From a virus, in the IMG/VR virus record IMGVR_UViG_3300001846_000219: DNA of 64,000 nt. One strand, 5' to 3'. The translations under genes were made by a program, and so were the position numbers. Positions within the stretch are counted from its first letter, which is position 1, and the number at the start of each line of letters is the position of its first letter. Below, in pieces: positions 1-64,000 of this stretch. Under the pieces are notes generated by a model. That model was given only the letters and a program-made list of their open reading frames with translations. It made no database searches and was not told the origin of the DNA.

Positions 1-2
1 AC

Positions 3-506
3 ATCACGATTGAAGCAACTGAAGAAGGAATCCGTTGTCCTAACATAGACAACCCCGATTTAATGCAACGACTGGTGAAGATCGAAGACTGGCAACCTCC
101 AGTCAGAACTTTACAGATTGCTTGCCCTATGATAGTCTGTTGGACTAAAGCAAGGAACGTGTGGGTTGAGGTTAAAGATCATCCACTGACTTCCCTCAAC
201 AATAACTTCACACTTGTGAATGGTTGGTTCAACCTATCCGATTGGGCACGTCCTATCTCTTTGGGCGTGAATCGTGTTGACCTAGATAAACCTGTGGTCA
301 TCAAACGTGGTGATCCAATCTACAAGATCTGTTTCTTGCAAGAGCATAACCTCAAGCAAGAATTCAATATGGTTAAGTCTATACCAAGTGAGAAGATTGT
401 GAAGGAGATGCATAACAGACTATCTGTTAAAACACTTATCCCATTTGTCAGTAACGATCTCATCTTCGGCAAGACAAAGAAATGTCCTTTTAGGTTCGGT
501 AAATGA
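3..506 (+). CDS. Conserved cyanophage hypothetical protein, 5'-truncated by the window edge
   Basis: The frame of the 63..506 ORF stays open back to position 3 (ITIEATEEGIRCPNIDNPDLMQRL...). Its stop overlaps the next start (ATGA). Confidence 0.7.
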   Translation: MTIEATEEGIRCPNIDNPDLMQRLVKIEDWQPPVRTLQIACPMIVCWTKARNVWVEVKDHPLTSLNNNFTLVNGWFNLSDWARPISLGVNRVDLDKPVVIKRGDPIYKICFLQEHNLKQEFNMVKSIPSEKIVKEMHNRLSVKTLIPFVSNDLIFGKTKKCPFRFGK

Positions 507-1156
507 ACAACTACGCAGAAGAATTGATACCAACGATTGTTGTTGATAACTTCTTTGAAACTCCGTCTCTAGTTGTTGCTATGGCACAGCAGTTGGAGTA
601 TTGGAGATGCACAAATCATCCGAATGGTGGATCTTGGCCAGGAAAAAGATCTGACTTTATCAATCACTTAGATCCAATCTTTCACGAGATTGTATGTAAG
701 AAACTGATTCGTTATTTGCCACACCATCAAGGATTTGATATTGCAGATATGGCATTTCACGTCTCTGATGGATCAACAAAATCTGGATGGGTTCATTCCG
801 ATCCTCCACACTTAGGAATCGGTGCTGTTATCTATCTGAATAAAGAGTTCAGGCAAGGTGCAGGAACTACCATCTATGATGTGCCTGCTGGATATAATGG
901 GCAGGTATATGAGAAGGAGTTCAAAGCACAATTACAGTGTCAGGATGATCCTGAAGCAGTTGCTAAGTTTGAAGAGTTCAAGAGACAATGTAACTCTGAC
1001 TTCAAACCGTCAGTATCTGTTGAAGCACGTTACAATCGTGCTATAATCTTTGATGGACGTAAATACCACGGTGGTATGGATTTCTTCGGAAATGATGCTA
1101 GTGATGGTAGACTAACTATTGTATTCTTTGGGAGGGGTATTCTAATTGGACCTTGA
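503..1156 (+). CDS. 2OG-Fe(II) oxygenase superfamily protein
   Basis: HxD motif (WVHSD), distal His (KYHGG), C-terminal RLTIVFF strand, N-terminal IVVDNFF typical of cyanophage copies. Confidence 0.8.
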   Translation: MNNYAEELIPTIVVDNFFETPSLVVAMAQQLEYWRCTNHPNGGSWPGKRSDFINHLDPIFHEIVCKKLIRYLPHHQGFDIADMAFHVSDGSTKSGWVHSDPPHLGIGAVIYLNKEFRQGAGTTIYDVPAGYNGQVYEKEFKAQLQCQDDPEAVAKFEEFKRQCNSDFKPSVSVEARYNRAIIFDGRKYHGGMDFFGNDASDGRLTIVFFGRGILIGP

Positions 1157-1781
1157 AACTATTGTTGACGAAAAACTATACCTTATCAAGGGTGCACTTG
1201 GGAAGGATTTGTGTGAATATCTCAAGACCGAGTTCTTGATGATTAAAGACATCGTGGAAGCAACTTCTCAGGGTCCAACTAGCGATCCCATTATGCCTGG
1301 TGCATTTGCGATGTATTCTCCCATTTGTTTTGAAGCAATGGGGCAGACAATCAAACCCCAAATTGAGGAAGCAGTCAATGCACAACTCTGGCAAACCTTT
1401 TCGTATGCGAGGGTGTACGTTAAGGGTACCAATCTTGTACGACATCGTGATAGAACCTCGGGAGAATGGGTCGGTAATGTTTGCATCACTCGTGATGATA
1501 CCGATTGGCCCTTCTATATTGAGATCGATGGAAGATCGCATCAAATTATCCTCAATCAAGGTGATTTGTTGATCTTCAGAGGACACAAGGATTTCCATTG
1601 GCGTCCAAAGTATACTGGTGAAATGCAGATTCAAGCATTTGTGTCATACGTTGACCAGAATGGTAAGTATGCAAAGAATAAGTGGGATGGTCGCCCTAAA
1701 CTTGCAGCACCCTGGGAAACTGCATCTGAAGAGATACAATATGAGCAGTCAATGATTAACTCTTCACCATACTATACCTGA
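1146..1781 (+). CDS. 2OG-Fe(II) oxygenase superfamily protein (TTG start)
   Basis: YARVY...LVRHRDR (HxD), GDLLIFRG...FHWR. Confidence 0.8.
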   Translation: MDLETIVDEKLYLIKGALGKDLCEYLKTEFLMIKDIVEATSQGPTSDPIMPGAFAMYSPICFEAMGQTIKPQIEEAVNAQLWQTFSYARVYVKGTNLVRHRDRTSGEWVGNVCITRDDTDWPFYIEIDGRSHQIILNQGDLLIFRGHKDFHWRPKYTGEMQIQAFVSYVDQNGKYAKNKWDGRPKLAAPWETASEEIQYEQSMINSSPYYT

Positions 1782-2440
1782 TGAAACTTACTGTAAATAA
1801 TCCATTCGACACCTTCTATAAGTCTGCCGATGATGTCATTGTATTTGATGACATCATCCCAGAGGTGTATCAGAACTGGTTGATCGATTGTATCAAGAAC
1901 CCAGACCTAAAATGGCATCGTAAGGATCACGCTATCAGTGATCTTAACGAGGATGATCCTCGCAATGGGTTCTGTAATTTCCACTATTTGTTTGAACTGG
2001 AGCAGCAGGAGTTATCTACCCTGACCAATGGGTTTATGCCACTTGCATTACAGTTTAGGGATAAACTGCAAGCAGAATGTCTATTGCGTATGCGTGTGAA
2101 CTGTGTGCCTGCTTGGTATCAGAATCAGGTACAGTTGCCACATATTGATAGTTATGTCAAGAACTCTTGGAATGTAGTTTATTATCTTGATGACTCTAAT
2201 GGTGATACTATCATCTATAATGAACGTACTCAAGATCATCGTGAGTATTGTAATTATGTCAAGAGAGATACGTGGACTGTCAAAGCAACTGTGGCACCAA
2301 AGAAAGGTCGTGCAGTTGCATTTAAGGGAGATTTGTTCCACAGTTCCACGTTACCAGTTGGCACCTGGCGTCCAGTGGTAAATATAAATGTTGCTGAGAA
2401 AACACCAACCGATCTGAACTACGCTTATTCTCCAAGATGA
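1781..2440 (+). CDS. 2OG-Fe(II) oxygenase superfamily protein
   Basis: LPHIDS (HxD), VYYLDDSNGDT, PKKGRAVAFKGDLFHSS, R in WRPVVNIN. Confidence 0.85.
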   Translation: MKLTVNNPFDTFYKSADDVIVFDDIIPEVYQNWLIDCIKNPDLKWHRKDHAISDLNEDDPRNGFCNFHYLFELEQQELSTLTNGFMPLALQFRDKLQAECLLRMRVNCVPAWYQNQVQLPHIDSYVKNSWNVVYYLDDSNGDTIIYNERTQDHREYCNYVKRDTWTVKATVAPKKGRAVAFKGDLFHSSTLPVGTWRPVVNINVAEKTPTDLNYAYSPR

Positions 2441-3111
2441 CATACAAACTTTATGATGGTGATGGTCACACTTTGTGGCGGTCTCCTGTAGTTGAACACG
2501 AACAACAAGAGATGATTGCACAACTTGGTCGTGCACATCGTCATTTTAAGAATACATTTACTGGGTTCGATTCATCACTCAATCGTGATGGTGGATTAAC
2601 TCTAGGTTCGCTTCCTGATATGTTCGCATTAAAAGAACAAAGAGATGCTGATCTGGAGTTTTTGAAGCAAGAGCGTAATTTTAGTGGATATAGATTCTAT
2701 AATATCTTTGCACTGACATCGCCAAGTCCTCTGTTTTGGCAACTGTTTCAGGATATTCGTACTGTTGTTCGTACTACTCTGGACACCACAGATCCACTGT
2801 GGATGCAATGCTGGATGAACTATCATCGTCCTGAAGAAGTATTGAAGTGGCACGATCATAAGTTTGACTATCACGGTTATGTGAGTATTGATCCTAAGAA
2901 GTCAACAACTAAGTTCAGGAATGGTAATGATCCTATCCTGTATGAAGTGAAGAACGAGATAGGTAACATCTACTTTGGTGCTGGATATAATCGTTATCAT
3001 CAAGTATTTGTTGACGAACCATATGAAGGTGCTAGAATTACGCTTGGATTTGATATACAGGTCCAACCAGATTTGCCAGACGATCAGTTCTCTCTGATTC
3101 CTCTATTGTAA
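2437..3111 (+). CDS. 2OG-Fe(II) oxygenase superfamily protein (HxH type)
   Basis: CWMNYHRPEEVLKWHDH, YHQV, RITLGFD. Confidence 0.75.
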   Translation: MTYKLYDGDGHTLWRSPVVEHEQQEMIAQLGRAHRHFKNTFTGFDSSLNRDGGLTLGSLPDMFALKEQRDADLEFLKQERNFSGYRFYNIFALTSPSPLFWQLFQDIRTVVRTTLDTTDPLWMQCWMNYHRPEEVLKWHDHKFDYHGYVSIDPKKSTTKFRNGNDPILYEVKNEIGNIYFGAGYNRYHQVFVDEPYEGARITLGFDIQVQPDLPDDQFSLIPLL

Positions 3112-3198
3112 TTGTTTCAGTTTGCTAACAGTTACTTGCGGTCCAGATCCTAGTCGTTATCATCTGGTCTAGATACTTTATGCTTGCTGGAGAAAGCA

Positions 3199-3713: not shown

Positions 3714-3755
3714 ACAATTACCCACCAGAACTTTATCGCGAAATCTGCATTTACT

Positions 3756-5516: not shown

Positions 5517-5517
5517 T

Positions 5518-5575
5518 GTGACAGTTAGGAAACCTGCACAGGGCGCTTGACTTTTGGTTGGGCGTCCTTTATATT
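5518..5575 (+). promoter_or_regulatory. Early promoter element 1 (imperfect palindrome plus sigma70 -35/-10)
   Basis: GTGACAGTT-N4-AACCTGCAC, then TTGACT (5547)-17 bp-TATATT (5570). Confidence 0.8.
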
Positions 5576-5597
5576 ATATTCATACCAAACAAAACGG

Positions 5598-6842
5598 ATG
5601 ACGATCACTCTTCGCCCTCATCAAGTTCGTGCTCTCGATGCAATGCAGCAGAACGATAAGGGTCAAATTATTGTACCAACTGGCGGTGGCAAAACATTCA
5701 TAATGATTCAGGATTGTCTGCGTCGTTTGCAGTCTGGTCCTAAGACTATTGTTGTTGTTGCTCCCCGTATTCTGCTCGCTAATCAACTCTGTGACGAGTT
5801 TATGCAGCAGATCAGTGCAACTTGGACTCACGTTTGCCACGCTCACAGTGGCGAAACTCACTTCTTCAGCAGCACCAAACCTGAGAAGATTGCTCTGTTC
5901 GTGAACACTGCACGAGCAGCAAATGAGTCTGCTATCGTATTCACCACTTACCACAGTTTGCGTCGTGTTGTCGATTCTGGCATTGGCATTGATTGTGCTT
6001 ATTTTGACGAAGCGCATAACTCTGTCCAAAAAAGTTTCTTTGTTGCTACTGCTGCTGTTAGCGATATTAGTGATAAAACCTATTATTTTACTGCTACTCC
6101 TCGCCATAATCGTCGTGATGGGCGCGGTATGAACAATGCTGAGATCTATGGTCCTGTCATTGAGAACGTGCCTGCACCAGAACTTATCAACAACGGCAGC
6201 ATCATTCCTCCCACTATTGTACCTTTTGAGATTGATCTCAATCGTGACAAGAAGCAAGCACATCACGCCGATGCTGCTACTGTTCAGGGTGTGATTGACA
6301 GTCTTGATGATACCCACGCTGCAAAGGTTCTTGTTGCTGTGCCTAGCAGTAAGATCCTTGGCAATATGATTGGGCAGACAGATTTGCTTGATCAACTCAA
6401 AGAGCGTGGTTATGATGTGCTCCACGTTACCTCTAAGTTTGGTGCATATGTCAACCAAAAGAAGGTCAACCGTGAGCAATTCTTTGAGACTCTGACTGAG
6501 TGGGGCAAAGATCCTGAGCGTAAGTTTGTCATCTTCCACTATTCTATTCTGTCGGAAGGTATCAACGTGCCTGGATTGACTCACACCATTCTTCTTCGCA
6601 ACCTGCAAATTGTGGAGATGGCACAGACTATTGGTCGTGTGATTCGTCTGAATCGTGATGACGCTGCTGGTATTGCTGCTGGCACGATTACACCTGGTCA
6701 GTTCGGTATGTATAAGAAACCCACTGGTTTCGTGACTGTACCTGTCTACCAGAACTATGGCAAGCAGGTATCAGAGCGCCTGCAACGTGTTGTTGACGCT
6801 ATCTTTATCAAAGGTGTGCCCCCTGAGTCTTTCGTTGCATAA
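5598..6842 (+). CDS. Superfamily 2 DEAD/DEAH-like helicase (type III Res-like ATPase core)
   Basis: LRPHQ Q-motif, PTGGGKT, DEAH, TATP, SEGINVP, QTIGRVIR. ATG at 5598 lies downstream of the promoter. Confidence 0.9.
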   Translation: MTITLRPHQVRALDAMQQNDKGQIIVPTGGGKTFIMIQDCLRRLQSGPKTIVVVAPRILLANQLCDEFMQQISATWTHVCHAHSGETHFFSSTKPEKIALFVNTARAANESAIVFTTYHSLRRVVDSGIGIDCAYFDEAHNSVQKSFFVATAAVSDISDKTYYFTATPRHNRRDGRGMNNAEIYGPVIENVPAPELINNGSIIPPTIVPFEIDLNRDKKQAHHADAATVQGVIDSLDDTHAAKVLVAVPSSKILGNMIGQTDLLDQLKERGYDVLHVTSKFGAYVNQKKVNREQFFETLTEWGKDPERKFVIFHYSILSEGINVPGLTHTILLRNLQIVEMAQTIGRVIRLNRDDAAGIAAGTITPGQFGMYKKPTGFVTVPVYQNYGKQVSERLQRVVDAIFIKGVPPESFVA

Positions 6843-11498: not shown

Positions 11499-11523
11499 AT
11501 AAGAGTCAAAGGAATTGCCCCAA

Positions 11524-13498: not shown

Positions 13499-13511
13499 AT
13501 TGTCCAAACCA

Positions 13512-50597: not shown

Positions 50598-53500
50598 ATG
50601 CCTCAGAATACCAATCTGAATATCTCCCCTTACTTCGACGATTTCGATAAGGCGGACAATTTCTACCGAGTGCTTTTCCGTCCTGGGTATCCCATTCAGG
50701 CACGAGAACTCACAACGATGCAATCTCTGTTGCAAAACCAGATTGAATCGTTTGGTACCCATATGTTCAAGGATGGCTCGATGGTCATCCCTGGTCAGGT
50801 TGGTTACGATCTTGATGCAAAAGCCATTCTACTTCAAGAGTCATTTCTTGGTGCCGACATTGAGCAATACAGAGCACAACTTGACGGTAAGATCATTGAA
50901 GGTCTGACGACAGGTGTTAAAGCAAAAGTTCTGTTCTCTATCCCAGCATCAGAATCTGACAGAGGATACATTACAGTATATCTAAAATATTTGACATCTG
51001 GTGGTGATGATAATGATGTCGCCACATTCGTGAATAATGAACAACTCATTTGTGAATCGGAAATTACTTATGGTAATTCTCTAATCGAGATTGGCACACC
51101 ATTTGCACAGATGCTCCCAACCAGTGCTACAGCAATTGGTTCTACAGCATCCGTTGCTGCTGGTGTCTACTTCATCCGTGGTTACTTTGTGGATGTTGCG
51201 GCTCAAACAATTGTTCTTGATCAGTACGGAAACAACCCCTCATATCGTATCGGTCTGGAAATCTTTGAGTCTATTGTTACTCCAGAAGACGATCCAGAAC
51301 TCAACGATAACGCAACTGGCACTTCTAACTACTCTGCTCCTGGTGCTCACCGCTTCAGAATCAGAACTTCCTTGGTTAAGAAGGTTATCGATGATGATAC
51401 CGATAAGAACTTCCTCGAACTTCTGAGAATCAACAAATCTCAGATCGAATCTTTTGTTGAAAGAAGCGCATATAATGAAATGGCAAGAGAACTTGCCAGA
51501 AGAACATATGATGAGTCTGGTGACTATACCGTCCGAGATTTTGATGTTCGTATTAGAGAACACCAGAATGATGGTATCAATAATGGCGTATATCTCCCTG
51601 GCGAGGTTTCCCCTGGTGGAATCTCATCTTCGGAATCTTATTATTCTATTGAGGTTGGTCCTGGTAAAGCATATGTTCGTGGATATGAGTCAGAAACTCT
51701 GACTCCGACCTTTGTTGACCTGATCAAACCCAGAACTACTGTCGGTCTGCAGAACTCGATCATTCCGTTTGAACTCGGCAACTATATGCTGATGAATAAC
51801 GTGAAGGGTTCTCCGATTGTAAACGGTAATAACATCACTGCAAACTATCAAGTTGTTGAACTTCGTGACGTTGCACCTAATAATGCTCTGACTGCATCTG
51901 GACGTATTATTGGTTATGCACGTGTGGCAGCATATGAGTATCATAGTGGAACAAATGTCAACTCAACTTCGACTGTTTTCAAAGCATACCTGTTTGACAT
52001 TCAACCGCTCACACTATTTAAGATGAGCAATAATGTGACTCTTTCGCAGGGTCACGTTATTCGTGGTCGTACTTCCAGAGCAAAAGCATTTGTCGAAGGT
52101 GATGTTGCTGGTGGTAGCCTGTTTAGTGTTTATCAGGTTTATGGTTCTTTCCGTGCTGGTGAAGTTATCGAACGTGATGGCGTTGAAATTGGTACCTTGG
52201 ATGACCTCTTCCAATATGAGGTTACTGATGCAAAAGGTATTACTGGTAGAGATCCCGACACTAATGCAATTGTCTTTGCAGGTGATTTTGTTCTCGATCA
52301 AGAAACAGTTATCCTCGGAACAAACTTCAGTGTCCCCAACACTGGCAGTGGCACTTTGACTGGTACACAATCCAATTTCACGTTGGATCTGCGTCCTGGT
52401 GATGTTCTCACTGCAAATGGCAGTACCACACTACAGGTCAATCTCATCGATACTTCTGGTAGCAGTATTGCGAACAAAGTTACCAGTGCAACCACGGTGA
52501 CTTATTCCAGTGGAAGTGTTGTAGCAGACGATTATGCATTCTTAGTTCGTCGTCGTGTACAAGTCTATGATCGTGAGACTGCAGATCTCCTGATCGAAAT
52601 GCCCAAGGATTCGATCAACAACATTTCTGATGAATCTGCAATCGTTGCACGTTCTTTTGATGACATCACGGTTACTGGTGCAAACGACTTTACGATCTCT
52701 CTGCCTGCTGACGAACAGTTCCTGGCATATGATAAGGATCATTATCAATTGGTTTCTCTTGCACCTACTGCAGGTACATTAATTGATATTGAAAATAATA
52801 TTACATTCAACACAACTGGTACACCCAGAACATCTCTGACTGTTTCTGGTCTTGCTGGTATCACTTCTTGCCGTCTCATTGCTTCTGTGTCTAAAAACCA
52901 GGCAGAGAAGAAACTGAAGAATGCTACTGAAATGGAAGTGATGAAGGTTGAGCGTACTGCCAACTCTTCAGATAACGTTAAGTATGGTCTGACCTACGGA
53001 TCTTTGTATGGTACCCGTATTGAAGACGAAGAAATTTCGCTGGGTTGTACTGACGTTTATAGAATTCACGCAGTTTATGAATCCGCAGATGATAATGCTG
53101 CTGTGATTCCTAACCTGACAATGCAAGATGCTACCATCTTCCAAAAGGGTACTATCATTGAAGGTCAAACATCTAAGGCAAAAGCAAGAGTTGTAAACTT
53201 CAATCCAGTGTCTTATGTTTGCCACTTTGTGTATGAGAACGATTCGTTCTTTATCCTCGGTGAGACAATCCGTGGTTTCGATGCAAACAATAATGTCATT
53301 ACTGGTTTGGTGAATGATGCTGAAGGATCCGTCAACAATGGTTCTCGTAACATTACCGATTCTTTCTTCCTCGATGTTAACCAGCAAGGACATTACTATG
53401 ACATTTCTAAACTGATTCGATATGCTGGATCGACATCACCGTTGCGTAAGTTGATGGTTGTCTTCAACAGATTCACTCACGAAGCAACTGGCGACTACTT

Positions 53501-56500
53501 TGCATCCCAATCTTACGTCGGTATCGATTATAAGGATATTCCGACGGTCAAATTCAATGGTGAAACACGTAATCTTAGAGATGTCCTTGATTTCAGACCT
53601 GCTGTTACTCCAGTTCTATCTGGTTCTGGTACTGTTGGTAGTCCGTACTATGTGAACTGTGCATCTTTGGACTTCAAAGATCGTGGTTTCTCCTCTGGTG
53701 GTGTGGCTAATAACGCTACGGTCATTGATATTCCGAAACCCGAATCCGATTTCCGTTGCGACTATGACTATTATGTTGGTCGTATCGATAAACTGTTCCT
53801 GACTGATCAGCAAGAGTTCAAGGTTGTTAAGGGTATCCCTGGTGAAAAGGATGATATTCCTACAAACATTGATAATGCGATGCTTCTGGCAACATTCTAT
53901 CACGAAGCATATGGTTATAGACCCGAAAACGTTCACATCATTCGGGAAAATAATCGTCGTTTCACGATGAAGGACATTGGTTATATTGAAAGACGTGTTG
54001 ACAACCTCGAATATTACACCTCGCTGAGTCTCCTCGAACTCGAAACTGCTCAATTGTCCATTAAGGACAGCGATGGTTTCGATAAGTTCAAGAACGGATT
54101 CCTGGTTGATAACTTCACATCTTTCGATTCTGCAGATACTTCACAACAAGATTTTGCTTGTGCACTGGACTTTGGTGAAGGTCTTCTGCGTGCATCTCAC
54201 TACACTACAAATGTTCCCCTCGAATTTAATGTAAATGCATCTTCTGGAGTTACTCTCCACGAAACTGGCACTCTGACTCTTCCATACGAAGAAACTCAGT
54301 TCATTGTTCAACCATATGCATCTCGTGTTGAGAACGTTAACCCGTTCAACGTGTTTGCATACATCGGTCGTCTTGATCTCTTCCCCTCGTCTGACGACTG
54401 GGTGGATAGCAGAAGAGCACCCGATCGTGTGGTGAACCTGGAAGGTGATTTCACAGCAACAATGCTGCGTCTTGGTGCTGACCAGAATACAGGTTTTGCT
54501 CCTGTTCAGTGGAACGCTTGGAGAACTAACTGGACATCAAACTCCAGTAGATCGAGTTCTCAGTTTATGCGTCGTGGTAACTGGCCGTTTATTAGAAGAA
54601 TCAACAGAACAACATCTACAAGCGTTAGTTCTCAAACAAGATCTGGTCTTAGAACTCGTGTTGTTCCCAGAATTGACCGTCAATCTCTTGGAGACAATGT
54701 GATTGAAAGAACTGTGATTCCTTTCATCCGTTCTAGAAATATTGCATTTGCTGTTCAGCGCCTCAAACCATACACCAGATTCTATGCATTCATTGACAAT
54801 GTTGACGTAAATTACTACTCAACTCCCAAACTGCTTGAAGTAACGAAGAACCCAGTTGACGATGTTCGTACAAATGACACACCATTTGTTACTGGAGAAA
54901 CCGTTATCGGTCAACAATCTGGATGTAGATTGAAGCTTGTGAATCCCAATGAGGGATTTGATGATGGTCTGTCTCCTTACGACAAGTCGGAACTTCCTTC
55001 CTCTTATGCTTCTACCACACCTCTACTGAATATCGACACTAAGATTATGTCGGAGACGGTTGCTGGTGACTACTATGGTAACCCAATTGAAACCGAGATT
55101 CTGGTGGGTCAAACCTCTGGTGCTCGTGCTGTGGTCAAGAAAAAGCGTTTGGTTGCAAATACCAACGGTGACCTCAGCGGCATTATGTGGATTCCCAATC
55201 CTGCGGTCAATACTAACCCCAGATTTGCAACTGGCACTCGTGTCATCCGTCTGACAACTTCTGCTACAGATTCTCGCATTCCTGGTCAAGTTGACTCTGC
55301 AGCATCTGCAAACTATGTTGCATCTGGTATCTTGGAAACCAAGCAGCAGACAATTCTTGCAGTTAGAAATGCAGATCTTGTAAGAGATACTGTGACACAG
55401 AACCGTATTGTTTCTAGTAGCAGCACATCCACTCGTGATACTGGTTGGTACGATCCCCTGGCACAATCCTTCTTGGTTGAGTCTAAGGGTGGTGCATTCC
55501 TGACGGGATGCGAACTGTATTTCAATACAAAGGATGAAAGAATTCCTGTTTCTGTGCAGGTTCGTGAGATGGCAAATGGTTATCCAACCACCAAAGTTTT
55601 GGCGTTCTCTGACGTTACTCTTCTTCCCTCTCAGGTCAACCTTTCCGAGAACGGTACTGTTTCTACTAAGTTTACATTCCAATCTCCAATCTATGTGACA
55701 GAAAACCGCGAATATTGCCTCGTAGTTCTGTCCGACTCTAACGAATATAAACTCTGGATTTCCAGAATGGGTGAGGATGATGTGACTAGCGATAGAACCA
55801 TCTCCGAGCAACCGTATGCTGGTGTTCTGTTTAAGTCTCAGAACGCATCTACTTGGACTGCTGACCAGTACGAAGACCTTAAGTTTATCCTGCATAAAGC
55901 AGAATTTGCTACTGGTACTAGCGGTACTGCAGTGTTCAACAACGCTAAACTTGCATTGGGTAACTCTGGTATTGCACAACTTCGCAATAATCCAGTCACC
56001 ACCTTGAAACCTCAAGTGAAGATTGTTCTTAGCGATCACGCTGCAAACTTCACTATCGGTGCTGAGATCACTCAAACTGATACTTCACCTGTTCCTTCTG
56101 CGATTGTTCGTGAAGTTGTTCAAGGTGTTCAAGGTTCATCGAACGCATATATCATCGTTGATGATGTGAATGGCACCTTCCGTGAAGGTGTTGCTTCTGG
56201 TTCGTCGTTCATCTATAGATTGGTTTCTTCCAGATCTATCGCAAACATCACTTTGACTGGCGTTACTGGAACTTTCACTGTTGATGAGGCGATCACGAAC
56301 GGTTCTGGTGCATCTGGTATTGTGACTAATTGGAATTCTGGTACTGGTGTTGTCACAATCAAGTCTGTGACTGGCACCTTTGCTGATGGTGATCCTGTTA
56401 CCCAGGAAATTAACCAAGTTACTACTGGTTCTGGTACCATCGGTTCCAGCGGAGTTGCTCTGAGTGGTGATGACATCAACGATTATCCCGCTGCACCAAT

Positions 56501-57809
56501 TTCTTACTTTAATGAAGCTAAGGAAATCACGATTGCACACGCAAACCACTGTATGCACGACGTTGCAAACAATGTGAGAATTAGCGGTGTGATCTCAGAA
56601 GTTGCTTCGACTGTAATTGACTCTGCCTATCATACAAATGGTATCACTGCAACAGATGGTGTTAGTGGGACATTCTCACTTCACGTTAATGACGCTGCAG
56701 CATTCCATACCGTTATCAACGGTGCTAGTGTTTCTACCAGTAATCCTGGTTATATTATAATTCGCGATGCTGAAATTGGTCAGCGTCATTTTGAAATTAT
56801 TGAATATAGCAACATCTCTTCTGATGGTAAGATCATTACCCTTCCCTCTGGTTCCCGTGGTAAGGATGGTACTGCAGCACTTGCACATAGTTCCAATAGC
56901 ATCGTTGAGTGCTACAACCTTGATGGTATCCCACTAACAGAAATCAACCGCCTACATACCCAAGTTGGATCTCCAACATTGGATAGTTATAAGTTGGCAG
57001 TTACCTCGGTTTCCAGCAGTGGCATCACAAATGGTGGATCTAACGTGACGGCAACTCAGAACATTCAGTTTGAGCAATTCCTTCCTCAAATTCAGATGAA
57101 CCAGTTCCCAGAAACTGATGTCATTCCCAGATTGAACGTTGTTTCTGGTACTTCTATCAAGGATGGTGCAAATATTGATGATGCATCGTTCATTAACGAT
57201 GGTGTGTATCTCGATTGTATTGCAAACGAAGATAACTACCTGACATTCCCCAAACTGGTGTGTTCACAAGTTAATGAAGATGCAAAGTTGAGTGGTTCCA
57301 AATCTCTCAATATGCAACTTCTGCTGAGCACCGAAAACAGCTCACTTTCTCCTGTTATTGACACCGATCGTTGTTCACTTATCACAACATCAAACAGAAT
57401 CAATGAAGTTGCCCAAGGCAATAGTGATGCTGAGAAGAACGCTGGTGACAAGAACGATGCAGTTTACATCACTAAGGTGATCAATCTGTTAAATCCTGCA
57501 AATACTTTGAAGGTTCAGTTTGAAGCGTGGCGTCATCCTGAAACTGAAATTTATGTGATGTATCGCATTCTTCCTGTTGGTACTTCCCTCTCCTTCGATG
57601 AGATTGGATATACATATTTCAACGGGAACGGTAAAGAGAACAAAACAGTTCAAAAGACTGAATCGTATCTCCTCCGCGATCTGGAGTATACTCTAGAATC
57701 TTCTCAAGAGTTTACATCCGCACAGGTTAAGATTATTATGACATCTAAGAACCAATCATATGTTCCCAACATTAAAAACCTTCGCGTTCTTGCACTGAGT
57801 GACCTCTAA
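50598..57809 (+). CDS. Large virion structural protein (DUF4815/VrlC-like)
   Basis: MPQNTNLNISPYFDDFD...RVLFRPGYPIQARELT; FKNGFLVDNF; DPLAQSF; WTADQYEDLKF. Confidence 0.85.
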   Translation: MPQNTNLNISPYFDDFDKADNFYRVLFRPGYPIQARELTTMQSLLQNQIESFGTHMFKDGSMVIPGQVGYDLDAKAILLQESFLGADIEQYRAQLDGKIIEGLTTGVKAKVLFSIPASESDRGYITVYLKYLTSGGDDNDVATFVNNEQLICESEITYGNSLIEIGTPFAQMLPTSATAIGSTASVAAGVYFIRGYFVDVAAQTIVLDQYGNNPSYRIGLEIFESIVTPEDDPELNDNATGTSNYSAPGAHRFRIRTSLVKKVIDDDTDKNFLELLRINKSQIESFVERSAYNEMARELARRTYDESGDYTVRDFDVRIREHQNDGINNGVYLPGEVSPGGISSSESYYSIEVGPGKAYVRGYESETLTPTFVDLIKPRTTVGLQNSIIPFELGNYMLMNNVKGSPIVNGNNITANYQVVELRDVAPNNALTASGRIIGYARVAAYEYHSGTNVNSTSTVFKAYLFDIQPLTLFKMSNNVTLSQGHVIRGRTSRAKAFVEGDVAGGSLFSVYQVYGSFRAGEVIERDGVEIGTLDDLFQYEVTDAKGITGRDPDTNAIVFAGDFVLDQETVILGTNFSVPNTGSGTLTGTQSNFTLDLRPGDVLTANGSTTLQVNLIDTSGSSIANKVTSATTVTYSSGSVVADDYAFLVRRRVQVYDRETADLLIEMPKDSINNISDESAIVARSFDDITVTGANDFTISLPADEQFLAYDKDHYQLVSLAPTAGTLIDIENNITFNTTGTPRTSLTVSGLAGITSCRLIASVSKNQAEKKLKNATEMEVMKVERTANSSDNVKYGLTYGSLYGTRIEDEEISLGCTDVYRIHAVYESADDNAAVIPNLTMQDATIFQKGTIIEGQTSKAKARVVNFNPVSYVCHFVYENDSFFILGETIRGFDANNNVITGLVNDAEGSVNNGSRNITDSFFLDVNQQGHYYDISKLIRYAGSTSPLRKLMVVFNRFTHEATGDYFASQSYVGIDYKDIPTVKFNGETRNLRDVLDFRPAVTPVLSGSGTVGSPYYVNCASLDFKDRGFSSGGVANNATVIDIPKPESDFRCDYDYYVGRIDKLFLTDQQEFKVVKGIPGEKDDIPTNIDNAMLLATFYHEAYGYRPENVHIIRENNRRFTMKDIGYIERRVDNLEYYTSLSLLELETAQLSIKDSDGFDKFKNGFLVDNFTSFDSADTSQQDFACALDFGEGLLRASHYTTNVPLEFNVNASSGVTLHETGTLTLPYEETQFIVQPYASRVENVNPFNVFAYIGRLDLFPSSDDWVDSRRAPDRVVNLEGDFTATMLRLGADQNTGFAPVQWNAWRTNWTSNSSRSSSQFMRRGNWPFIRRINRTTSTSVSSQTRSGLRTRVVPRIDRQSLGDNVIERTVIPFIRSRNIAFAVQRLKPYTRFYAFIDNVDVNYYSTPKLLEVTKNPVDDVRTNDTPFVTGETVIGQQSGCRLKLVNPNEGFDDGLSPYDKSELPSSYASTTPLLNIDTKIMSETVAGDYYGNPIETEILVGQTSGARAVVKKKRLVANTNGDLSGIMWIPNPAVNTNPRFATGTRVIRLTTSATDSRIPGQVDSAASANYVASGILETKQQTILAVRNADLVRDTVTQNRIVSSSSTSTRDTGWYDPLAQSFLVESKGGAFLTGCELYFNTKDERIPVSVQVREMANGYPTTKVLAFSDVTLLPSQVNLSENGTVSTKFTFQSPIYVTENREYCLVVLSDSNEYKLWISRMGEDDVTSDRTISEQPYAGVLFKSQNASTWTADQYEDLKFILHKAEFATGTSGTAVFNNAKLALGNSGIAQLRNNPVTTLKPQVKIVLSDHAANFTIGAEITQTDTSPVPSAIVREVVQGVQGSSNAYIIVDDVNGTFREGVASGSSFIYRLVSSRSIANITLTGVTGTFTVDEAITNGSGASGIVTNWNSGTGVVTIKSVTGTFADGDPVTQEINQVTTGSGTIGSSGVALSGDDINDYPAAPISYFNEAKEITIAHANHCMHDVANNVRISGVISEVASTVIDSAYHTNGITATDGVSGTFSLHVNDAAAFHTVINGASVSTSNPGYIIIRDAEIGQRHFEIIEYSNISSDGKIITLPSGSRGKDGTAALAHSSNSIVECYNLDGIPLTEINRLHTQVGSPTLDSYKLAVTSVSSSGITNGGSNVTATQNIQFEQFLPQIQMNQFPETDVIPRLNVVSGTSIKDGANIDDASFINDGVYLDCIANEDNYLTFPKLVCSQVNEDAKLSGSKSLNMQLLLSTENSSLSPVIDTDRCSLITTSNRINEVAQGNSDAEKNAGDKNDAVYITKVINLLNPANTLKVQFEAWRHPETEIYVMYRILPVGTSLSFDEIGYTYFNGNGKENKTVQKTESYLLRDLEYTLESSQEFTSAQVKIIMTSKNQSYVPNIKNLRVLALSDL

Positions 57810-58270: not shown

Positions 58271-58319
58271 TCTGAGAGGCATATCCTGTCCGTCCACGGA
58301 TACTTCCACCTGATTTCAA

Positions 58320-61300
58320 ATGGCAAATAGAATTCAATTAAGGCGTGATGGTGCTCAGCAGTGGGCGAACATCAACCCAATCCTTGCTCAAGGCGAACTC
58401 GGAATCGAAATTGATACGTCACGTATTAAGATCGGAGATGGTGTTACGCCGTGGAACTCGCTGAAATATGAGCGACCATTAGAGACTGAATCGAACGCTG
58501 CTAATACTCTCGTTAAGCGTGACGCAGACGGTAACTTCCAAGCAGGTGCCATTACTGCTACGTTGATCGGTAATGCCTCTACCGCAACTCGTTTTGCCAA
58601 CGCACGTCAGATCCAGTTAACGGGACAGGTTACTGGTTCTGGTTCTTTTGACGGTTCTGCAAACCTGTCACTGAACACTGACCTGTCGCTGATTACGACA
58701 CTACCACATTACGATCCCAACAACCCCAACGCAGAGGCACTTTATACACGAGTTCGTGTTAACTCTCAGGGTCGTGTTGTTGGTGCTGAACTTGCATCTA
58801 CCCTTTCCGACTATGGTATTACTGATGCTCAGGGATTGGATGCTGACCTGACATCTCTTTCCGATCTGACAACTGTTGGTATTCTTGTTCGCGCCTCTCA
58901 GGGCAACATTGTTACAAGAACGCTGACAGGCGGTGGCGGTAGAATCATCTTCACCGTTCCTGACGGTACTTCTCAAAACCCATTTATCGACCTGGCAGAT
59001 ACCACGGTTGTGGTGGGTTCTTACAACGTTGAATCTCTCACATCTGTTGGAACTGGTAGTGAGACGGTTAACGCTACAAGATTTACTGTTGATAGATACG
59101 GTCGTCTTACAGCAGCACTTACTGTTCCCATTGCTACAGCGACTGAAGGTAGTAAGTATGCCGCATATGATGCAGGCACTGCATATTCCCGTTACGATAT
59201 TATTGAAGAGGGTGGAAAGGTATATCAAGCATATGTTGACATCAATGCTGGTGTAGGTTCACCTACCCATAATACTGGAGATGTAAGTGGTTGGCGTTAT
59301 CTCGCCACAGCCGCAACCGAACAGAAGGGTCTTGCTTCGTTTGCACAAGAAGACTTCGATGTTGATGCTAATGGTCACGTTAGTATTGCACTTGGGGGAA
59401 TTGATAATACTCAACTACAGGATGATCGTCTCATCTTTACCGACGGTAATACGGTTCAAGAGTTCCCCCTCGATAAAGAACTGACAACATCTAATGCTCA
59501 TACTGGATTTGATTATCTTAATTACATCCACATCAATGACACTTCTGGCAATCTCCTCTTCTCTGCCAACAATGTTGATAACACTGGTGCAGGTGGCGTC
59601 GATATTAACGTTGACACCAATATTAGTGGCGCAAATATCATTCTTGATCGCCCTGGCACTTCTCCACTTCAAACAATTGAGAGGACTGCGGGTTCTCTGA
59701 AGATCTGGCACAATGTCAATTCTGCAACTGACAGAACTCTTGACATTGTTAGCAACAATGCTGGTTCTGGTACTGCGACTCTCAATATCACCGCAGACAA
59801 TGACATCACTCTTTCTGCTACAGATGTAAGCAGCAGAGTCAACGTTGAAGACTTCCACTTCCAAGACAATGTTTTGTCCACCACCAACTCAACAATGGTG
59901 TTGGATCCGAACGATGATGACGGTGCAACTGGTCTTGTTCGTGTTCGTGGTGACCTCCAAGTTGACGGTACAACCACCACCGTAAACTCGGTGACAATGA
60001 CCGTCCAAGATCCCATCATCACTCTCGGTGGTGAAGATGTTCTTACAAGTGATGACGGTCTTGACCGTGGTGTTGAGTTTAGATATTATGATACCCAAGA
60101 AAGATTTGGTTTCTTTGGTTGGGATGAAGATTACACGAACGCTAACATTTGGTCTGGCACTGGTGGCTATCGCTTCCTCTACAACGCCACCAACACAGGC
60201 GAAGTTTTCTCTGGCACAGACGCTCCTCTCATTGCTGGTAACCTCCGACTGACAACCAACACTGGTTCTACCTCCACTACAAGTGGTACCCTTGTGGTCA
60301 CTGGTGGTGCTGGTATTTCCGAGAGACTGTATGTTGGTGGTCGTACGTTCATCAGTTCTGAGACACACGTCTATGACAACCTGTCTCTCCGTGCTGATGG
60401 TAAACAGTTCCTTGTCACCACTGCTGGCAGTCTTGTTAAGTTCAGTGTTGACAGCAGCACTGGCGACACTACCACTTGGGGTGAATTGTATGCTTGGGGT
60501 CAAACCCAGGTCGATGATAATGTCATCTTCAGACAGACATCATCTGAATCTGGTAAGACATTTGTTATTAAGAACGATACGACAGATAAGTTCACTGTTG
60601 ATTACACAACAGGTAACAGTGTTATTGCTGGCACACTGAACGTCAATAATGGAGTTGACCTTGACAGCACTCTGAATGTTGATGGTGCTACAGACCTGAA
60701 CAGCACCCTGACTGTTGATGGTGTTACTACTATCTACGACAGCACTTTGATTCAGGGTTCTGCCAAGACATTCAAAATTAACAATACTCTTGCAGTTCAA
60801 AAGTTTGCAGTTGCTTCCGATACTGGTAATACCGACATCGAAGGCACTCTGAATCTTGGTAACTACTTCCATCACGAAGATACCGACACACCCACAATTT
60901 CTACCGATGCCAACGATTACTTTATCATCTCTGGTGGCGATTATGGTGCTTTCCGTCACGATGGTGGTGGTTACATTGAGGGTGACACTCTCTTTAATAA
61001 CGACATTTATATTAACGGTGCTATCAACCAGCGAGACCAAGGTTCTGGCACAGAAACATTCAGCACACAGAACTACCTGAGAGTACGATATAAGTTCCGT
61101 ACTGGTACAACTATTGCATATACTCCCACATATGCAACTGATGGTAACTCCAACCTGAGAGTTTACGGTGGCGGTGGTATCGCTACCGACCTTCACATCG
61201 GTCGTGACCTGTTCATCGGTAAGTTGAACTCTGGCGATACGATCGACTTCCAAGTTGAAGGTTCTACAGGTAACACAGTAATCGGTCGTGTTGGTCAGGG

Positions 61301-64000
61301 TACAGCATCTGCTGGTACATTGACTGTCCACGGTGATGCAACATTTAACCGTGAAGTTGACTTCACTGGTTCACAGGTCACCGTTGGTAACGCTAACACT
61401 GATGTTCTGACTGTTAATTCCGTCTCCCAGTTCACTGATAACGTGACTGTTGATGGTGACCTGACTGTCAATACCAACGCATTGATCGAAGGTAACCTGA
61501 CTGTCAACGGTACAACCACGACAGTGAACTCCACCACAATGCAACTGGACGATCCTGTCCTAACTCTGGGTGGCGACACTGCTCCTACTCAGGCAGATGC
61601 TAAGGATCGTGGTGTTGAGTTCCGTTACTACGATGGTTCTGCAAAACTCGGTTTCTTTGGTTGGGACAATTCTGCATCTCGTTATGCCCTGTTCCACAAT
61701 GCAATCAACTCTAGCGAAGCATTCTCTGGTACAAGATCTGGTCTCGATGTTGGTTCCGTCAAGATCTTTGATACAACCAACTCGGTAACTTCCTCCACAG
61801 GTGCTCTCATCGTTGGTGGTGGTGCAGGTATTGGTATTGACCTGAACGTCGGTAGATACCTGAACGTTGGCAACACAATCTTCACTTCTGGAGATCTGGA
61901 TGTTGTTGGCGACTTTGACCTGGGTGATGATTTCAGAATCGCAACCAACAAATTTACTGTTGCTGCTGCAACTGGTAACACTGTTTCTGCTGGTACTCTG
62001 ACTGTTGCTGGTCAAACCACACTGCAGTCTGGACTGGGTGTGAGCAGCAATGCAACCATTGGCGGCACTTTAGGCGTAACTGGCGCTACAACGCTGTCCA
62101 GCACGCTTGCAGTGACCTCTGGTACAACGCTCAGCAGCACCCTCACCGTTGCTGGTGCATCCAATGTTAATAACACTCTGGGTGTCACAGGCGTAACCAC
62201 AATCACCAATGCTTCCACTGCATCTACAACGGGTCAATTCACTGGTGATGGTGCTCTGAGAGTTACTGCTGGTGGTGGTTCTGTCTTTGGTAACTGGGTT
62301 GTTGGTGGTGACCTTAAGGTCTATGGCGATGCCATCTATGATGGTGACATCAACTATGCAGGTACTCAGACTTACACTGGTAAGGCACGTTTCAACAACA
62401 CCACGGATGCAACTAGCGCAACCAGCAATAACGTTTCGTTGTTCACCGCTGGTGGTCTTGCAGTTGCTAAGAAGGCATTCATTGGTGATGACCTGAATGT
62501 TGGTGCTAGCAAGTTCACCGTTGATGGACCCACGGGTAACACTGCAATTGTTGGAACACTTGGTGTAACTGGTGGAACATCTCTGTCTACACTTACGGCT
62601 ACAGGTGTTGCCGACCTCCAATCGACGCTTACTCTTGGTGGTAACCTGACGATCAATACCAATAAGTTTGTCGTCAACTCTGCAACAGGCAGTACCGATA
62701 TTGCTGGTACTCTGGATGTTGTTGGTGCTACCAACCTCACATCTCTTGACACTTCTGGTGCTGTTGACTTCAATGGTGCCAACTACATTAAGATTACGAA
62801 TTCTGGCGCATACTTCCAGAACAGTGGTCTGTCTCGTTTTGTAAATACCAACGATTCCACTGGATATAACAACACATCCGCTTCTGTTGCTATCTACGGT
62901 GGTTTGTCTCTTGCTAAGAGACTGAACGTTGGTGGTAATGTGATGATTGGTGGTAGTGCTGGTGTTAAGACAACCATTACTGCATCCACTGGTCACATTA
63001 CAACCGATGGCAACATCAGTGCACAGGGTAGCGGTTCTATCGGCACTACACTGAATGTTGGCGGTGTCTTAACTGCCACTGGCGGTGTGATTGGTGATGT
63101 GACTGGTACTGCGACCAATGCAGACAACATTGACATCACAAACACAAACAATAATACTACGTTCTATCCAACGTTTGCTTCCGCAAACACTGGTCACACG
63201 GGTATGTTTGTTGACTCTGCAAACCTCACATATAATCCATTCTCGAACACACTGAGTGTTACCAACTTTGTCTCCACAACAAACTTTGAAGTCCAAGGTA
63301 ACCTGACAGTTACTGGTAACGCAATCTATCAAAACTCGCAGGTTGGTGACATCAGCAACCACGATACCGATGATCTGGCAGAGGGTACCACCAATCTGTA
63401 CTTCACTGATGAGCGTGTTGATGACCGTGTTGCTGCTCTGATCTCTGGTGGTACTGGCATCAGTGCTTCCTATGATGATGCTGGCAATCTGTTGACTCTG
63501 AGTGCTGTTCCTGCAGATTTGGATACTGATGACATTGCCGAAGGTGCAACGAATCTGTACTACACAGATGCTCGTGCTGATGCCCGTATCGCTCTTGCTG
63601 CTCCAAATTATGCAACCGCTGCTCAGGGCACATTGGCAGACTCCGCCACTCAACCTGGCGATAACATTAGCACCCTAACCAACAACTTAAACTTCATTGA
63701 TGCAGCAGGTGCTCCTGTCCAGTCTGTCGCTGGCAAGACTGGCACCGTCACTCTGGTCAAGGGTGATGTTGGTCTGGGCAATGTTGACAACACTTCTGAC
63801 GCTAACAAACCCGTTAGCACCGCTCAGCAGACTGCTCTGAATCTGAAAGCAAATCTGGCATCGCCTGCTCTCACAGGTATTCCTACTGCTCCTACCGCTG
63901 CTCAGGCAACCAACACAACTCAGGTTGCTACCACAGCATTCGTCCAATCCAATCTGACAGCATCGCTCTTGCGTGCTGCTCTGGGAATTCCTGAATATGC
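58320..64000 (+). CDS. Long tail fibre protein, 3'-truncated by the window edge (at least 1893 aa; not in the track)
   Basis: MANRIQLRRDGAQQW...NPILAQGELGIEIDT..IKIGDGVTPWNSL N-terminal domain. The frame reads cleanly at spot checks near 59220, 60000, 61500, 63000 and 63960. Ends in KANLASPALTGIPTAPTA...TQVATTAFV. Confidence 0.9.
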   Translation, partial: MANRIQLRRDGAQQWANINPILAQGELGIEIDTSRIKIGDGVTPWNSLKYERPLETESNAANTLVKRDADGNFQAGAITATLIGNASTATRFANARQIQLTGQVTGSGSFDGSANLSLNTDLSLITTLPHYDPNNPNAEALYTRVRVNSQGRVVGAELASTLSDYGITDAQGLDADLTSLSDLTTVGILVRASQGNIVTRTLTGGGGRIIFTVPDGTSQNPFIDLADTTVVVGSYNVESLTSVGTGSETVNATRFTVDRYGRLTAALTVPIATATEGSKYAAYDAGTAYSRYDIIEEGGKVYQAYVDINAGVGSPTHNTGDVSGWRYLATAATEQKGLASFAQEDFDVDANGHVSIALGGIDNTQLQDDRLIFTDGNTVQEFPLDKELTTSNAHTGFDYLNYIHINDTSGNLLFSANNVDNTGAGGVDINVDTNISGANIILDRPGTSPLQTIERTAGSLKIWHNVNSATDRTLDIVSNNAGSGTATLNITADNDITLSATDVSSRVNVEDFHFQDNVLSTTNSTMVLDPNDDDGATGLVRVRGDLQVDGTTTTVNSVTMTVQDPIITLGGEDVLTSDDGLDRGVEFRYYDTQERFGFFGWDEDYTNANIWSGTGGYRFLYNATNTGEVFSGTDAPLIAGNLRLTTNTGSTSTTSGTLVVTGGAGISERLYVGGRTFISSETHVYDNLSLRADGKQFLVTTAGSLVKFSVDSSTGDTTTWGELYAWGQTQVDDNVIFRQTSSESGKTFVIKNDTTDKFTVDYTTGNSVIAGTLNVNNGVDLDSTLNVDGATDLNSTLTVDGVTTIYDSTLIQGSAKTFKINNTLAVQKFAVASDTGNTDIEGTLNLGNYFHHEDTDTPTISTDANDYFIISGGDYGAFRHDGGGYIEGDTLFNNDIYINGAINQRDQGSGTETFSTQNYLRVRYKFRTGTTIAYTPTYATDGNSNLRVYGGGGIATDLHIGRDLFIGKLNSGDTIDFQVEGSTGNTVIGRVGQGTASAGTLTVHGDATFNREVDFTGSQVTVGNANTDVLTVNSVSQFTDNVTVDGDLTVNTNALIEGNLTVNGTTTTVNSTTMQLDDPVLTLGGDTAPTQADAKDRGVEFRYYDGSAKLGFFGWDNSASRYALFHNAINSSEAFSGTRSGLDVGSVKIFDTTNSVTSSTGALIVGGGAGIGIDLNVGRYLNVGNTIFTSGDLDVVGDFDLGDDFRIATNKFTVAAATGNTVSAGTLTVAGQTTLQSGLGVSSNATIGGTLGVTGATTLSSTLAVTSGTTLSSTLTVAGASNVNNTLGVTGVTTITNASTASTTGQFTGDGALRVTAGGGSVFGNWVVGGDLKVYGDAIYDGDINYAGTQTYTGKARFNNTTDATSATSNNVSLFTAGGLAVAKKAFIGDDLNVGASKFTVDGPTGNTAIVGTLGVTGGTSLSTLTATGVADLQSTLTLGGNLTINTNKFVVNSATGSTDIAGTLDVVGATNLTSLDTSGAVDFNGANYIKITNSGAYFQNSGLSRFVNTNDSTGYNNTSASVAIYGGLSLAKRLNVGGNVMIGGSAGVKTTITASTGHITTDGNISAQGSGSIGTTLNVGGVLTATGGVIGDVTGTATNADNIDITNTNNNTTFYPTFASANTGHTGMFVDSANLTYNPFSNTLSVTNFVSTTNFEVQGNLTVTGNAIYQNSQVGDISNHDTDDLAEGTTNLYFTDERVDDRVAALISGGTGISASYDDAGNLLTLSAVPADLDTDDIAEGATNLYYTDARADARIALAAPNYATAAQGTLADSATQPGDNISTLTNNLNFIDAAGAPVQSVAGKTGTVTLVKGDVGLGNVDNTSDANKPVSTAQQTALNLKANLASPALTGIPTAPTAAQATNTTQVATTAFVQSNLTASLLRAALGIPEY

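Follow-up and report, generated by a model that had tools for sequence, protein, structure and literature searches.

What empties a viral genome of particular four-letter words, and what stands to gain from their absence? The question is raised by the 64,000-nt stretch of IMG/VR virus record IMGVR_UViG_3300001846_000219 (hereafter the window, meaning the whole of this stretch), in which CATG and CCGG are absent and the tetramers matching RGCY (R, purine; Y, pyrimidine) are nearly so. Selection driven by sequence-specific nucleases is very probably the cause of this purge. For CATG, a candidate cause is encoded in the window itself, at 11515-12024 on the + strand, in the form of a 169-amino acid (aa) protein predicted to adopt the fold of the restriction endonuclease PvuII. 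The composite explanation developed below, in which different words were lost to different nucleases, is given a probability of roughly 0.55.

Exact counts over the 64,000 bases (43.4% GC, expectations from composition) give no CATG where 241 copies are expected and no CCGG where 142 are, as an earlier reading of the letters alone (the sequence-only reading) had claimed from a visual scan. GGCC occurs six times (142 expected, 0.04 of expectation) and all six copies are TGG-CCN, i.e., Trp-Pro dipeptides in + strand open reading frames (ORFs), at 636-639 (TGG CCA), 1507-1510 (TGG CCC), 21068-21071 (TGG CCA), 27098-27101 (TGG CCA), 40217-40220 (TGG CCG), and 54583-54586 (TGG CCG); that reading had recognized this context and placed each site to within two bases. 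Trp-Pro is the only context from which GGCC cannot be removed synonymously and, since the dipeptide itself occurs about as often as expected (6 against 7.3), the selection does not extend to the protein sequence. AGCT is present 15 times (241 expected, 0.06), one more than the approximate count first given, with its earliest copy at 22874 and hence past 22 kb, as had been stated. The treatment of AGCT and GGCC as separate words does not hold: AGCC (11 against 182 expected, 0.06) and GGCT (12 against 188, 0.06) are equally rare, and the avoided word is therefore RGCY, all four versions of which are low together, in the manner of a CviJI-type target.

The palindromes are low beyond what composition, codon usage, and protein sequence account for, which is the mark of restriction-site avoidance. 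When synonymous codons were shuffled 200 times within each of 38 + strand ORFs (56.7 kb), a procedure that preserves the protein sequence and the codon usage of each gene, the expected numbers were 82.5 ± 6.8 for CATG (minimum 67), 124 ± 9.5 for CCGG, 50.7 ± 5.7 for GGCC, and 156 ± 10.5 for AGCT, and none of the 200 shuffles approached the observed 0, 0, 6, and 15; the claim of avoidance thus survives the codon-shuffled comparison that the sequence-only reading had proposed for it. The footprint is visible at codon junctions, again as described from the letters: before a codon starting with G, His is encoded 81 times by CAC and never by CAT (elsewhere, 93 CAT and 86 CAC); none of the 191 codons preceding an internal ATG ends in C, against 22% of all codons; and ACC-GGN is found in none of 176 Thr-Gly pairs. 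In addition, 12 six-base palindromes that contain none of these tetramers are absent from the window (TTCGAA, TTTAAA, AGTACT, GTCGAC, TACGTA, GACGTC, AGCGCT, GGCGCC, TGCGCA, ACGCGT, CCGCGG, and CTCGAG), and exact hexamer counts show no absent non-palindromic hexamer pair in the window. Other palindromes are plentiful, such as CTGCAG (35 copies, 11 expected) and ATCGAT (32 copies). Of note, GATC (374 against 241 expected) and TGCA (429 against 241) are over-represented, and CTGCAG, enriched here, has no copy in the 185 kb of cyanophage S-WAM1.

Judged by its genes, the source of the window is a T4-like cyanomyovirus (Kyanoviridae), because of the relatives of its baseplate wedge protein gp6 and because the counterpart in Synechococcus phage S-SZBM1 of a giant ORF at 24586-43650 is a gene annotated as "baseplate wedge initiator." Among the isolates listed as matches (records of the window's own genome may have been left out), none shares more than 59% identity with the gp6 homologue; the nearest are S-SZBM1 and cyanophages P-RSM6, P-TIM40, and S-WAM1. 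Closer relatives exist in IMG/VR, namely 80 loci with 71-100% gp6 identity and two complete genomes, G002 and G003; DNA near-identical to the window comes from metagenomes of aquatic, salt-marsh, and estuary sites. For whole-genome counts, complete IMG/VR relatives (G002, G003, and the nuclease-bearing G313) and isolate genomes stood in for the genome of the window.

The purge is genome-wide and clade-wide, and it is layered by word. Across the 80 related loci (1.19 Mb), there is no CATG out of about 4,170 expected and no CCGG out of about 1,780; GGCC occurs one to four times per locus, except in two short loci that have none, and the levels of GCGC and RGCY differ between sub-lineages. G003 (181,945 bp) has 0 of 662 expected CATG, 0 of 320 CCGG, and 19 of 320 GGCC. 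G002 has 12 CATG, all within its terminal 2.4 kb, and these were rejected as a real exception: the contig end (C1:185063-187493, L110) is a copy, 78% identical, of its own first 565 bases, a chimeric terminal overlap assembled from a related CATG-bearing strain.

Beyond the clade, the layers separate. Eight named T4-like cyanophages (S-SZBM1, P-RSM6, P-TIM40, S-WAM1, S-SSM4, Syn33, S-PM2, and P-SSM2) have no CCGG, with GGCC at 0.04-0.17, AGCT at 0.02-0.44, and CATG at 0.4-1.3 of expectation, and the zero for CCGG was confirmed in the whole genomes of P-SSM2, P-TIM68, and S-WAM1. Kyanoviridae that lack the PvuII-like gene have CCGG at 0.01, AGCT at 0.04, GGCC at 0.06, AGCC at 0.03, and GGCT at 0.02 of expectation. 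The loss of CCGG concerns nearly all Kyanoviridae rather than all of them, since a few lineages, namely G313, G315, and G317 and some short contigs, keep it at 0.27-0.6 of expectation. Each of six whole genomes has in addition its own set of absent six-base palindromes, and 20-30 palindromes in all are missing from each genome; examples of words missing from single genomes are GCGC and CGCG in P-SSM2, TCGA in S-SSM4, and CTGCAG and TTTAAA in S-WAM1, and CAATTG is absent from G002 and present in G003. By comparison, 80 loci of T7-like cyanophages (753 kb) have CCGG at 0.57, AGCT at 1.72, CATG at 1.22, and GGCC at 0.21, and P-SSP7, Syn5, and P-SS2 retain CCGG, AGCT, and CATG. In host DNA (537 kb of Prochlorococcus and several Synechococcus and Cyanobium loci), these words are at or above expectation, except CCGG at 0.45-0.85. 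The sequence-only reading had offered three causes for the four words jointly; selection against cleavage is well supported, but a single shared cause is not.

CATG is the layer for which a phage gene comes into view. The protein encoded at 11515-12024 matches phrog_35715 and is 62-70% identical to homologues in G002, G003, G313, and P-SSM2, and 48% identical to gp050 of P-TIM68; homologues are abundant in metagenomes, numbering more than 1,000. Its AlphaFold2 model (mean predicted local distance difference test score, pLDDT, 89.1; predicted template modelling score 0.82) was compared with the PDB by Foldseek, and the 12 best matches are all R.PvuII, with E-values of 3e-7 to 2e-6, template modelling scores of 0.58-0.71, and 165-175 aligned columns. 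The PvuII fold thus extends over the full chain, and the residues of a PD-(D/E)XK nuclease are in place: in an alignment of 34 homologues, the Asp at D59 is invariant and the Glu-x-Lys at E68 and K70 invariant or nearly so. A phmmer alignment of the G002 homologue with PvuII (3ksk) puts this D...ExK on PvuII's own catalytic motif. PvuII was not among the PDB matches of a profile built from the 34-sequence alignment, so the link to PvuII relies on the single-sequence alignment and the fold search. The Pfam family of R.PvuII, PF09225, is matched weakly in each of the two complete relatives free of CATG and not at all in five isolates that contain it; P-SSM2, although it has CATG, nonetheless carries a homologue detected by tblastn, and a few metagenomic homologues have a precomputed PF09225 match.

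Modelling also suggests that the protein is probably a homodimeric homologue of type IIP restriction endonucleases. A two-copy model scores 0.50 for the interaction prediction score from aligned errors (ipSAE), against 0.00 for the best control, although dimers of PvuII have been solved and the pass may reflect likeness to them only; for calibration, 20 of 30 proteins with solved pair structures attain this value, as does 1 of 23 whose solved structures are single chains. At least 90% of contacts are common to the three runs, the partner pLDDT is at least 86, and the modelled interface is formed by the N-terminal helices (residues 8-51). Contigs from one metatranscriptome study span 11515-12024 with no differences; they are not counted as evidence here, as DNA carry-over is possible and contigs cannot show transcription.

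The gene and the missing word go together. In 46 loci with the nuclease, the median observed/expected ratio of CATG is 0.25 (range 0 to about 1), while in 63 helicase-centred Kyanoviridae loci without it the median is 1.25 and the ratio never falls below 0.71. CATG is the sole 4-bp palindrome with a comparable difference between the two sets: without versus with the nuclease, AGCT is at 0.04 versus 0.02, GGCC at 0.05 versus 0.05, and CCGG at 0 in both. The proposal of the sequence-only reading that a nuclease of the phage itself was responsible is therefore supported for CATG, whose depletion tracks the PvuII-fold gene, present in the window with no partner methylase. We infer that the enzyme is active and recognizes CATG. 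PvuII itself cuts CAGCTG. As a candidate site for the phage enzyme, CAGCTG cannot be judged from its absence in the window, because AGCT is itself nearly gone there; the specificity is nevertheless probably different, given that P-TIM68 and P-SSM2 have 23 and 6 CAGCTG sites, respectively, and that the gene tracks CATG.

In P-TIM68, the nuclease homologue lies between a PF01555 methylase (gp049) and gp051, a 176-aa protein annotated as a methyltransferase and carrying an NPPF motif. In most metagenomic relatives, a gp051-like NPPF gene, encoding 176-183 aa, overlaps the stop codon of the nuclease gene in a compact module just behind the helicase, and P-SSM2 has both gp049-like and gp051-like methylases elsewhere in its genome. 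No match to a gp049-like or gp051-like methylase was found in the window, G002, or G003, so that, in the clade of the window, the nuclease does not form a complete Type II restriction-modification system. Of the nine loci that carry the nuclease and are free of CATG, six have no NPPF gene and three keep it, and all five nuclease-bearing loci with normal CATG have it; the three CATG-free loci that still carry the NPPF gene fit a state just before loss of the methylase.

Around this hot spot, other methylase genes are found. The gp049-like PF01555 methylase was considered as the CATG protector and rejected, as many phages that have no nuclease carry it while the complete nuclease-bearing genome G313 does not, so that its presence fails to sort the loci. 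A beta-class N6/N4 methylase 65-86% identical to gp049 of P-TIM68 occurs without the nuclease in 22 of the 63 loci (L350-L429) and in P-RSM6 (L082:46864-47733), where such an orphan possibly gives protection against enzymes of rival phages or of hosts. In Syn33 (L086:6520-7924), a gene for a 216-aa "restriction endonuclease" with no Pfam or NCBIfam match overlaps that of a PF01555 methylase annotated as dam; this pair lies just upstream of the helicase and is another phage-borne restriction-modification-like pair at the same hot spot.

These observations can be assembled into a scenario in which selection on synonymous codon choice clears the genome of short palindromes cut by sequence-specific nucleases. 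A phage lineage would gain a module made of the PvuII-fold nuclease and the NPPF (N6-adenine-type) methyltransferase, and carriers would then lose CATG gradually, because methylation may not fully shield phage DNA that replicates fast. Once CATG had reached zero, the methylase would become dispensable and could be lost, as may have happened in the clade of the window. The orphan enzyme would be free to cut CATG-rich DNA of the host or of co-infecting phages, with the phage itself immune because it has no CATG sites. GGCC and the lineage-specific 6-bp palindromes would reflect ordinary avoidance of restriction enzymes met inside infected cells, and CCGG and RGCY, missing from almost all Kyanoviridae, would have been lost to the same kind of selection. 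That the CATG loss in particular is due to the phage's own orphan enzyme is given slightly better than even odds.

Several points weigh against this scenario. Five loci combine the nuclease and the NPPF gene with normal CATG, many others are intermediate, and 250 CATG are found in the complete genome G313, where both genes are present; normal or intermediate CATG alongside the module fits only with the added assumption of imperfect protection followed by gradual loss. The Mann-Whitney value for CATG by nuclease presence (1.4e-17) is not a true probability, because the two sets of loci were retrieved by separate queries and contain related members. Alternatively, the lineages with the nuclease might have in common hosts that restrict DNA at CATG. 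Besides, an HNH gene at 14147-14485 is likewise specific to the clade of the window, and the putative CATG specificity belongs to a relative of an enzyme with another site. At the level of the protein family, homologues of the window copy score 13.4-18.5 bits against PF09225 (E 0.002-0.08), below the gathering threshold of 25 bits. Finally, no enzyme directed at CCGG or RGCY was found in the phages or hosts searched.

The most serious rival attributes all the missing words, including CATG, to host Type II systems thinly spread through the pan-genome of marine and estuarine picocyanobacteria, made effective, even where rare, by the very large numbers of phages and the wide host ranges of T4-like cyanophages; the PvuII-like gene would then have nothing to do with CATG, and the site of its product may be a 6-bp one such as CAGCTG. 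The changing palindromes speak for it, as the sets of 20-30 absent words differ from phage to phage, are too many for phage-encoded enzymes, and look like ordinary restriction avoidance. So does GGCC, whose low level in T7-like cyanophages of the same hosts too points to an enzyme on the host side; to this extent, the suggestion in the sequence-only reading that host Type II enzymes were at work is retained, for GGCC. Generalists occur among T4-like cyanophages, in contrast to the specialized T7-like ones (PMC6708340), and Type II systems do occur in a minority of host-family genomes, in the form of RE_SinI with a C5 methylase or of an EcoO109I-like enzyme with a C5 methylase, a C5 methylase being present in 38 of 301 such genomes (13%). 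Yet restriction-modification is described as uncommon in picocyanobacterial hosts (PMC6708340), RE_HpaII, which would cut CCGG, was found in 0 of the 301 host-family genomes, and CCGG, AGCT, and CATG persist in the siphoviral and T7-like cyanophages that infect these hosts. Very large phage populations could make rare host enzymes effective, but this leaves unexplained why T7-like phages keep CCGG and RGCY. Above all, CATG is depleted in none of the 63 nuclease-free Kyanoviridae loci and commonly so in the 46 with the gene. As a full account, host systems are thus rather unlikely, at something like one chance in four.

Restriction-related modules of the host family were recorded on L201 (G072), L197 (G279), L239 (G199), and L238 (G139); they comprise a C5 methylase paired with a SinI-like enzyme, another paired with an EcoO109I-like enzyme, Vsr with a C5 methylase and HATPase_c_3, and a 686-aa C5 methylase beside DUF6339 genes, this last module lying at matching coordinates in the four genomes where it is on a chromosome-scale contig. 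PDB matches of the host C5 methylases do not reveal their specificity.

A second rival keeps the phage as the source of the CATG-directed nuclease and replaces the PvuII-like protein by the 112-aa HNH endonuclease encoded at 14147-14485 (+ strand). This gene is confined to the clade of the window, was found at 78-81% identity in all CATG-free members of that clade that cover the region, and was not found in P-SSM2, P-TIM68, S-WAM1, or G313; some CATG enzymes, e.g., NlaIII, may be of HNH type. The CATG-free or CATG-poor lineages outside the clade, for which 10-kb flanks were sampled, nevertheless have the PvuII-like gene and not the HNH gene, and in T4-like phages the product of a small HNH gene is most often a homing endonuclease, which is the more likely identity here; this candidate therefore has little chance of being the right one.

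The third rival, also raised by the sequence-only reading, holds that the words are targets of methyltransferases, so that DNA marked during one infection would be open to destruction by methylation-dependent Type IV enzymes of the next host, and a phage without the words would avoid the mark. Some Prochlorococcus do have C5 methylases with Vsr and an HATPase-type neighbour, or the 686-aa C5 methylase beside DUF6339, and orphan methylases exist in many Kyanoviridae. Against this, a search for C5 methylases found none in seven complete phage genomes (G002, G003, P-RSM6, P-TIM40, S-WAM1, S-PM2, and P-SSM2), three partial phage relatives, or the five host genomes examined, and only the 13% of host-family genomes mentioned above have one. 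G002 and G003 have D12 Dam-type methylases only, with no C5 or beta-class N6/N4 enzyme, no PF01555 or PF00145 gene, and no gp051-like methylase found in either; as far as gene content indicates, the clade of the window has no protective methylase for the purged words. GATC, the target of the phages' Dam-type enzyme, is over-represented rather than avoided, and the retention of the words by T7-like phages of the same hosts would go unexplained. Escape from methylation is accordingly most improbable, and this part of the sequence-only reading is abandoned. As for a by-product of mutation bias or of codon or dinucleotide usage, words containing CpG are indeed generally low (CGCG at 0.44 and GCGC at 0.30 of expectation), but codon-usage-preserving controls still expect about 50 to 156 copies of each tetramer, the absent hexamers are all palindromic, CATG contains no CpG, and the choice of codon depends on the codon that follows, so that this idea can be set aside with near certainty.

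An agent behind the loss of CCGG was sought among phage genes. In a comparison of gene content, the 116 ORFs common to five CCGG-free genomes were screened against CCGG-bearing G313; five are missing from it, of which two are present in other CCGG-bearing contigs and three have no PHROG or Pfam match and are probably not genes, leaving no credible candidate for a CCGG nuclease. G313 (L330-L341), G315 (L342-L344), and G317 (L345-L349), which have 35-38% GC and carry a nuclease-methylase module of Kyanoviridae type, offer a helpful comparison in the search for whatever selects against CCGG.

A bolder extension is that the whole family of T4-like cyanophages distinguishes its own DNA from foreign DNA by the absence of sites rather than by base modification. 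Methylase-free restriction-type nucleases would shred host and rival-phage DNA, at the cost of CCGG and RGCY throughout and of CATG in some clades, and would thereby take the functional place that hydroxymethylcytosine together with endonucleases II and IV has in T4; the PvuII-like enzyme would be the first recognizable example, and the CCGG and RGCY nucleases would be unrecognized family-wide genes. We regard this as speculative and on balance quite doubtful.

Selection against cutting by sequence-specific nucleases is a known phenomenon. Avoidance of restriction sites in virulent dsDNA phages is said to have been described by Sharp in 1986, and the likeness is close, in that short palindromic Type II sites are removed synonymously, with a different set in each lineage. 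A later study of restriction-site avoidance in phages does not mention cyanophages (Rusinov et al., 2018; PMC6286503). The present case differs by the extreme depletion, by the family-wide avoidance of two words, and by the fact that the hosts are reported to be poor in restriction and that co-occurring T7-like phages share little of the pattern. The avoidance by a genome of the site of its own restriction-modification system, known in bacteria, was reportedly noted by Gelfand and Koonin in 1997; it resembles the fall of CATG only where the PvuII-like gene is present. Rusinov et al. (2015; PMC4687349) deal with this same avoidance. Here the carrier would be a lytic phage, the loss goes to zero, the methylase has been dropped, and absence of the site would replace methylation.

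Comparison with individual systems is also instructive. With R.PvuII/M.PvuII (PF09225; PDB 1pvi, 1f0o), the phage enzyme shares the fold over the whole chain, the D...ExK at nearly the same positions, and a predicted dimer through N-terminal helices. A PF01555 methylase, the family to which M.PvuII presumably belongs, stands beside the gene in one relative, P-TIM68. The differences are an identity of 17-20%, scores below the Pfam cut-off, the want of a methylase in the clade, and a usual partner that is, elsewhere, the small NPPF protein. Chloroviruses encode R.CviAII/M.CviAII (CATG) and R.CviJI/M.CviJI (RGCY), which probably serve to degrade host DNA; the parallel is that viruses of phototrophs encode 4-bp cutters for words missing here, except that chloroviruses keep the sites and protect them by methylation, whereas here the sites are gone and no cognate methylase is found. 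In T4, endonucleases II and IV act on cytosine DNA and T4 DNA carries hydroxymethylcytosine. In either case, a T4-type phage that breaks down the host genome needs some means of sparing its own DNA, but self-protection in the cyanophages would rest on the absence of sites and not on base modification. T4-like cyanophages do degrade host DNA while replicating (PMC6708340).

A search of the literature turned up nothing on the avoidance of palindromes, or on PvuII-like genes, in cyanophages. Three features are new here: the avoidance is layered by word, CCGG and RGCY have been lost from nearly the entire family, and the disappearance of CATG is linked to a PvuII-fold nuclease that the window encodes with no methylase. 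A substantial fraction of the ocean's main primary producers falls to marine T4-like cyanophages, and there is a paradox in that their hosts are said to be poor in restriction, yet the avoidance signature of these phages is among the strongest. If the orphan enzyme does cut CATG, it would account for degradation of host DNA without base modification, would offer a worked example of a restriction-modification module turned into a methylase-free weapon after loss of its site, and might add to the known 4-bp cutters. That CCGG and RGCY have vanished across the family points in turn to a nuclease in hosts or phages, and the motif profile could aid the assignment of metagenomic contigs to Kyanoviridae lineages.

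The remaining features of the window, nearly all of whose real genes are on the + strand, are those of a T4-type phage. They include genes for baseplate wedge proteins (gp6, gp8, and gp9/10-like) and a DEAD/ResIII helicase at 5547-6842 (+), which served as a synteny anchor and has the nuclease and small methylase genes directly behind it in many relatives. A gene at 16445-17263 (+) encodes a 272-aa HNH_3-type endonuclease with a DNA-binding region that is poorly conserved, at 33-49% identity among relatives. All 38 avoidable RGCY sites of the window (15 AGCT, 11 AGCC, and 12 GGCT) lie beyond 17.4 kb, within the late structural module at 17494-62600 (+), at about 0.8 per kb; under an even spread, finding none in the first 17.4 kb has a probability of about 6e-6. 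Three giant structural ORFs are present: the one at 24586-43650, of 6,354 aa; a second at 50598-57809, of 2,403 aa, with DUF4815; and a third at 58320-63998, of more than 1,893 aa, which runs past the end of the window and has an N-terminal Mtd_N tropism-determinant domain. The window also contains several genes resembling 2-oxoglutarate (2OG)-Fe(II) oxygenases, with at least six 2OG-Fe(II) oxygenase, DUF6445, or cupin-like genes within 503-3111, 13500-14144, and 15785-16336; the PHROG labels "DNA endonuclease V" and "minor coat protein" attached to several of the oxygenase-like genes look like misannotations that have been carried over.

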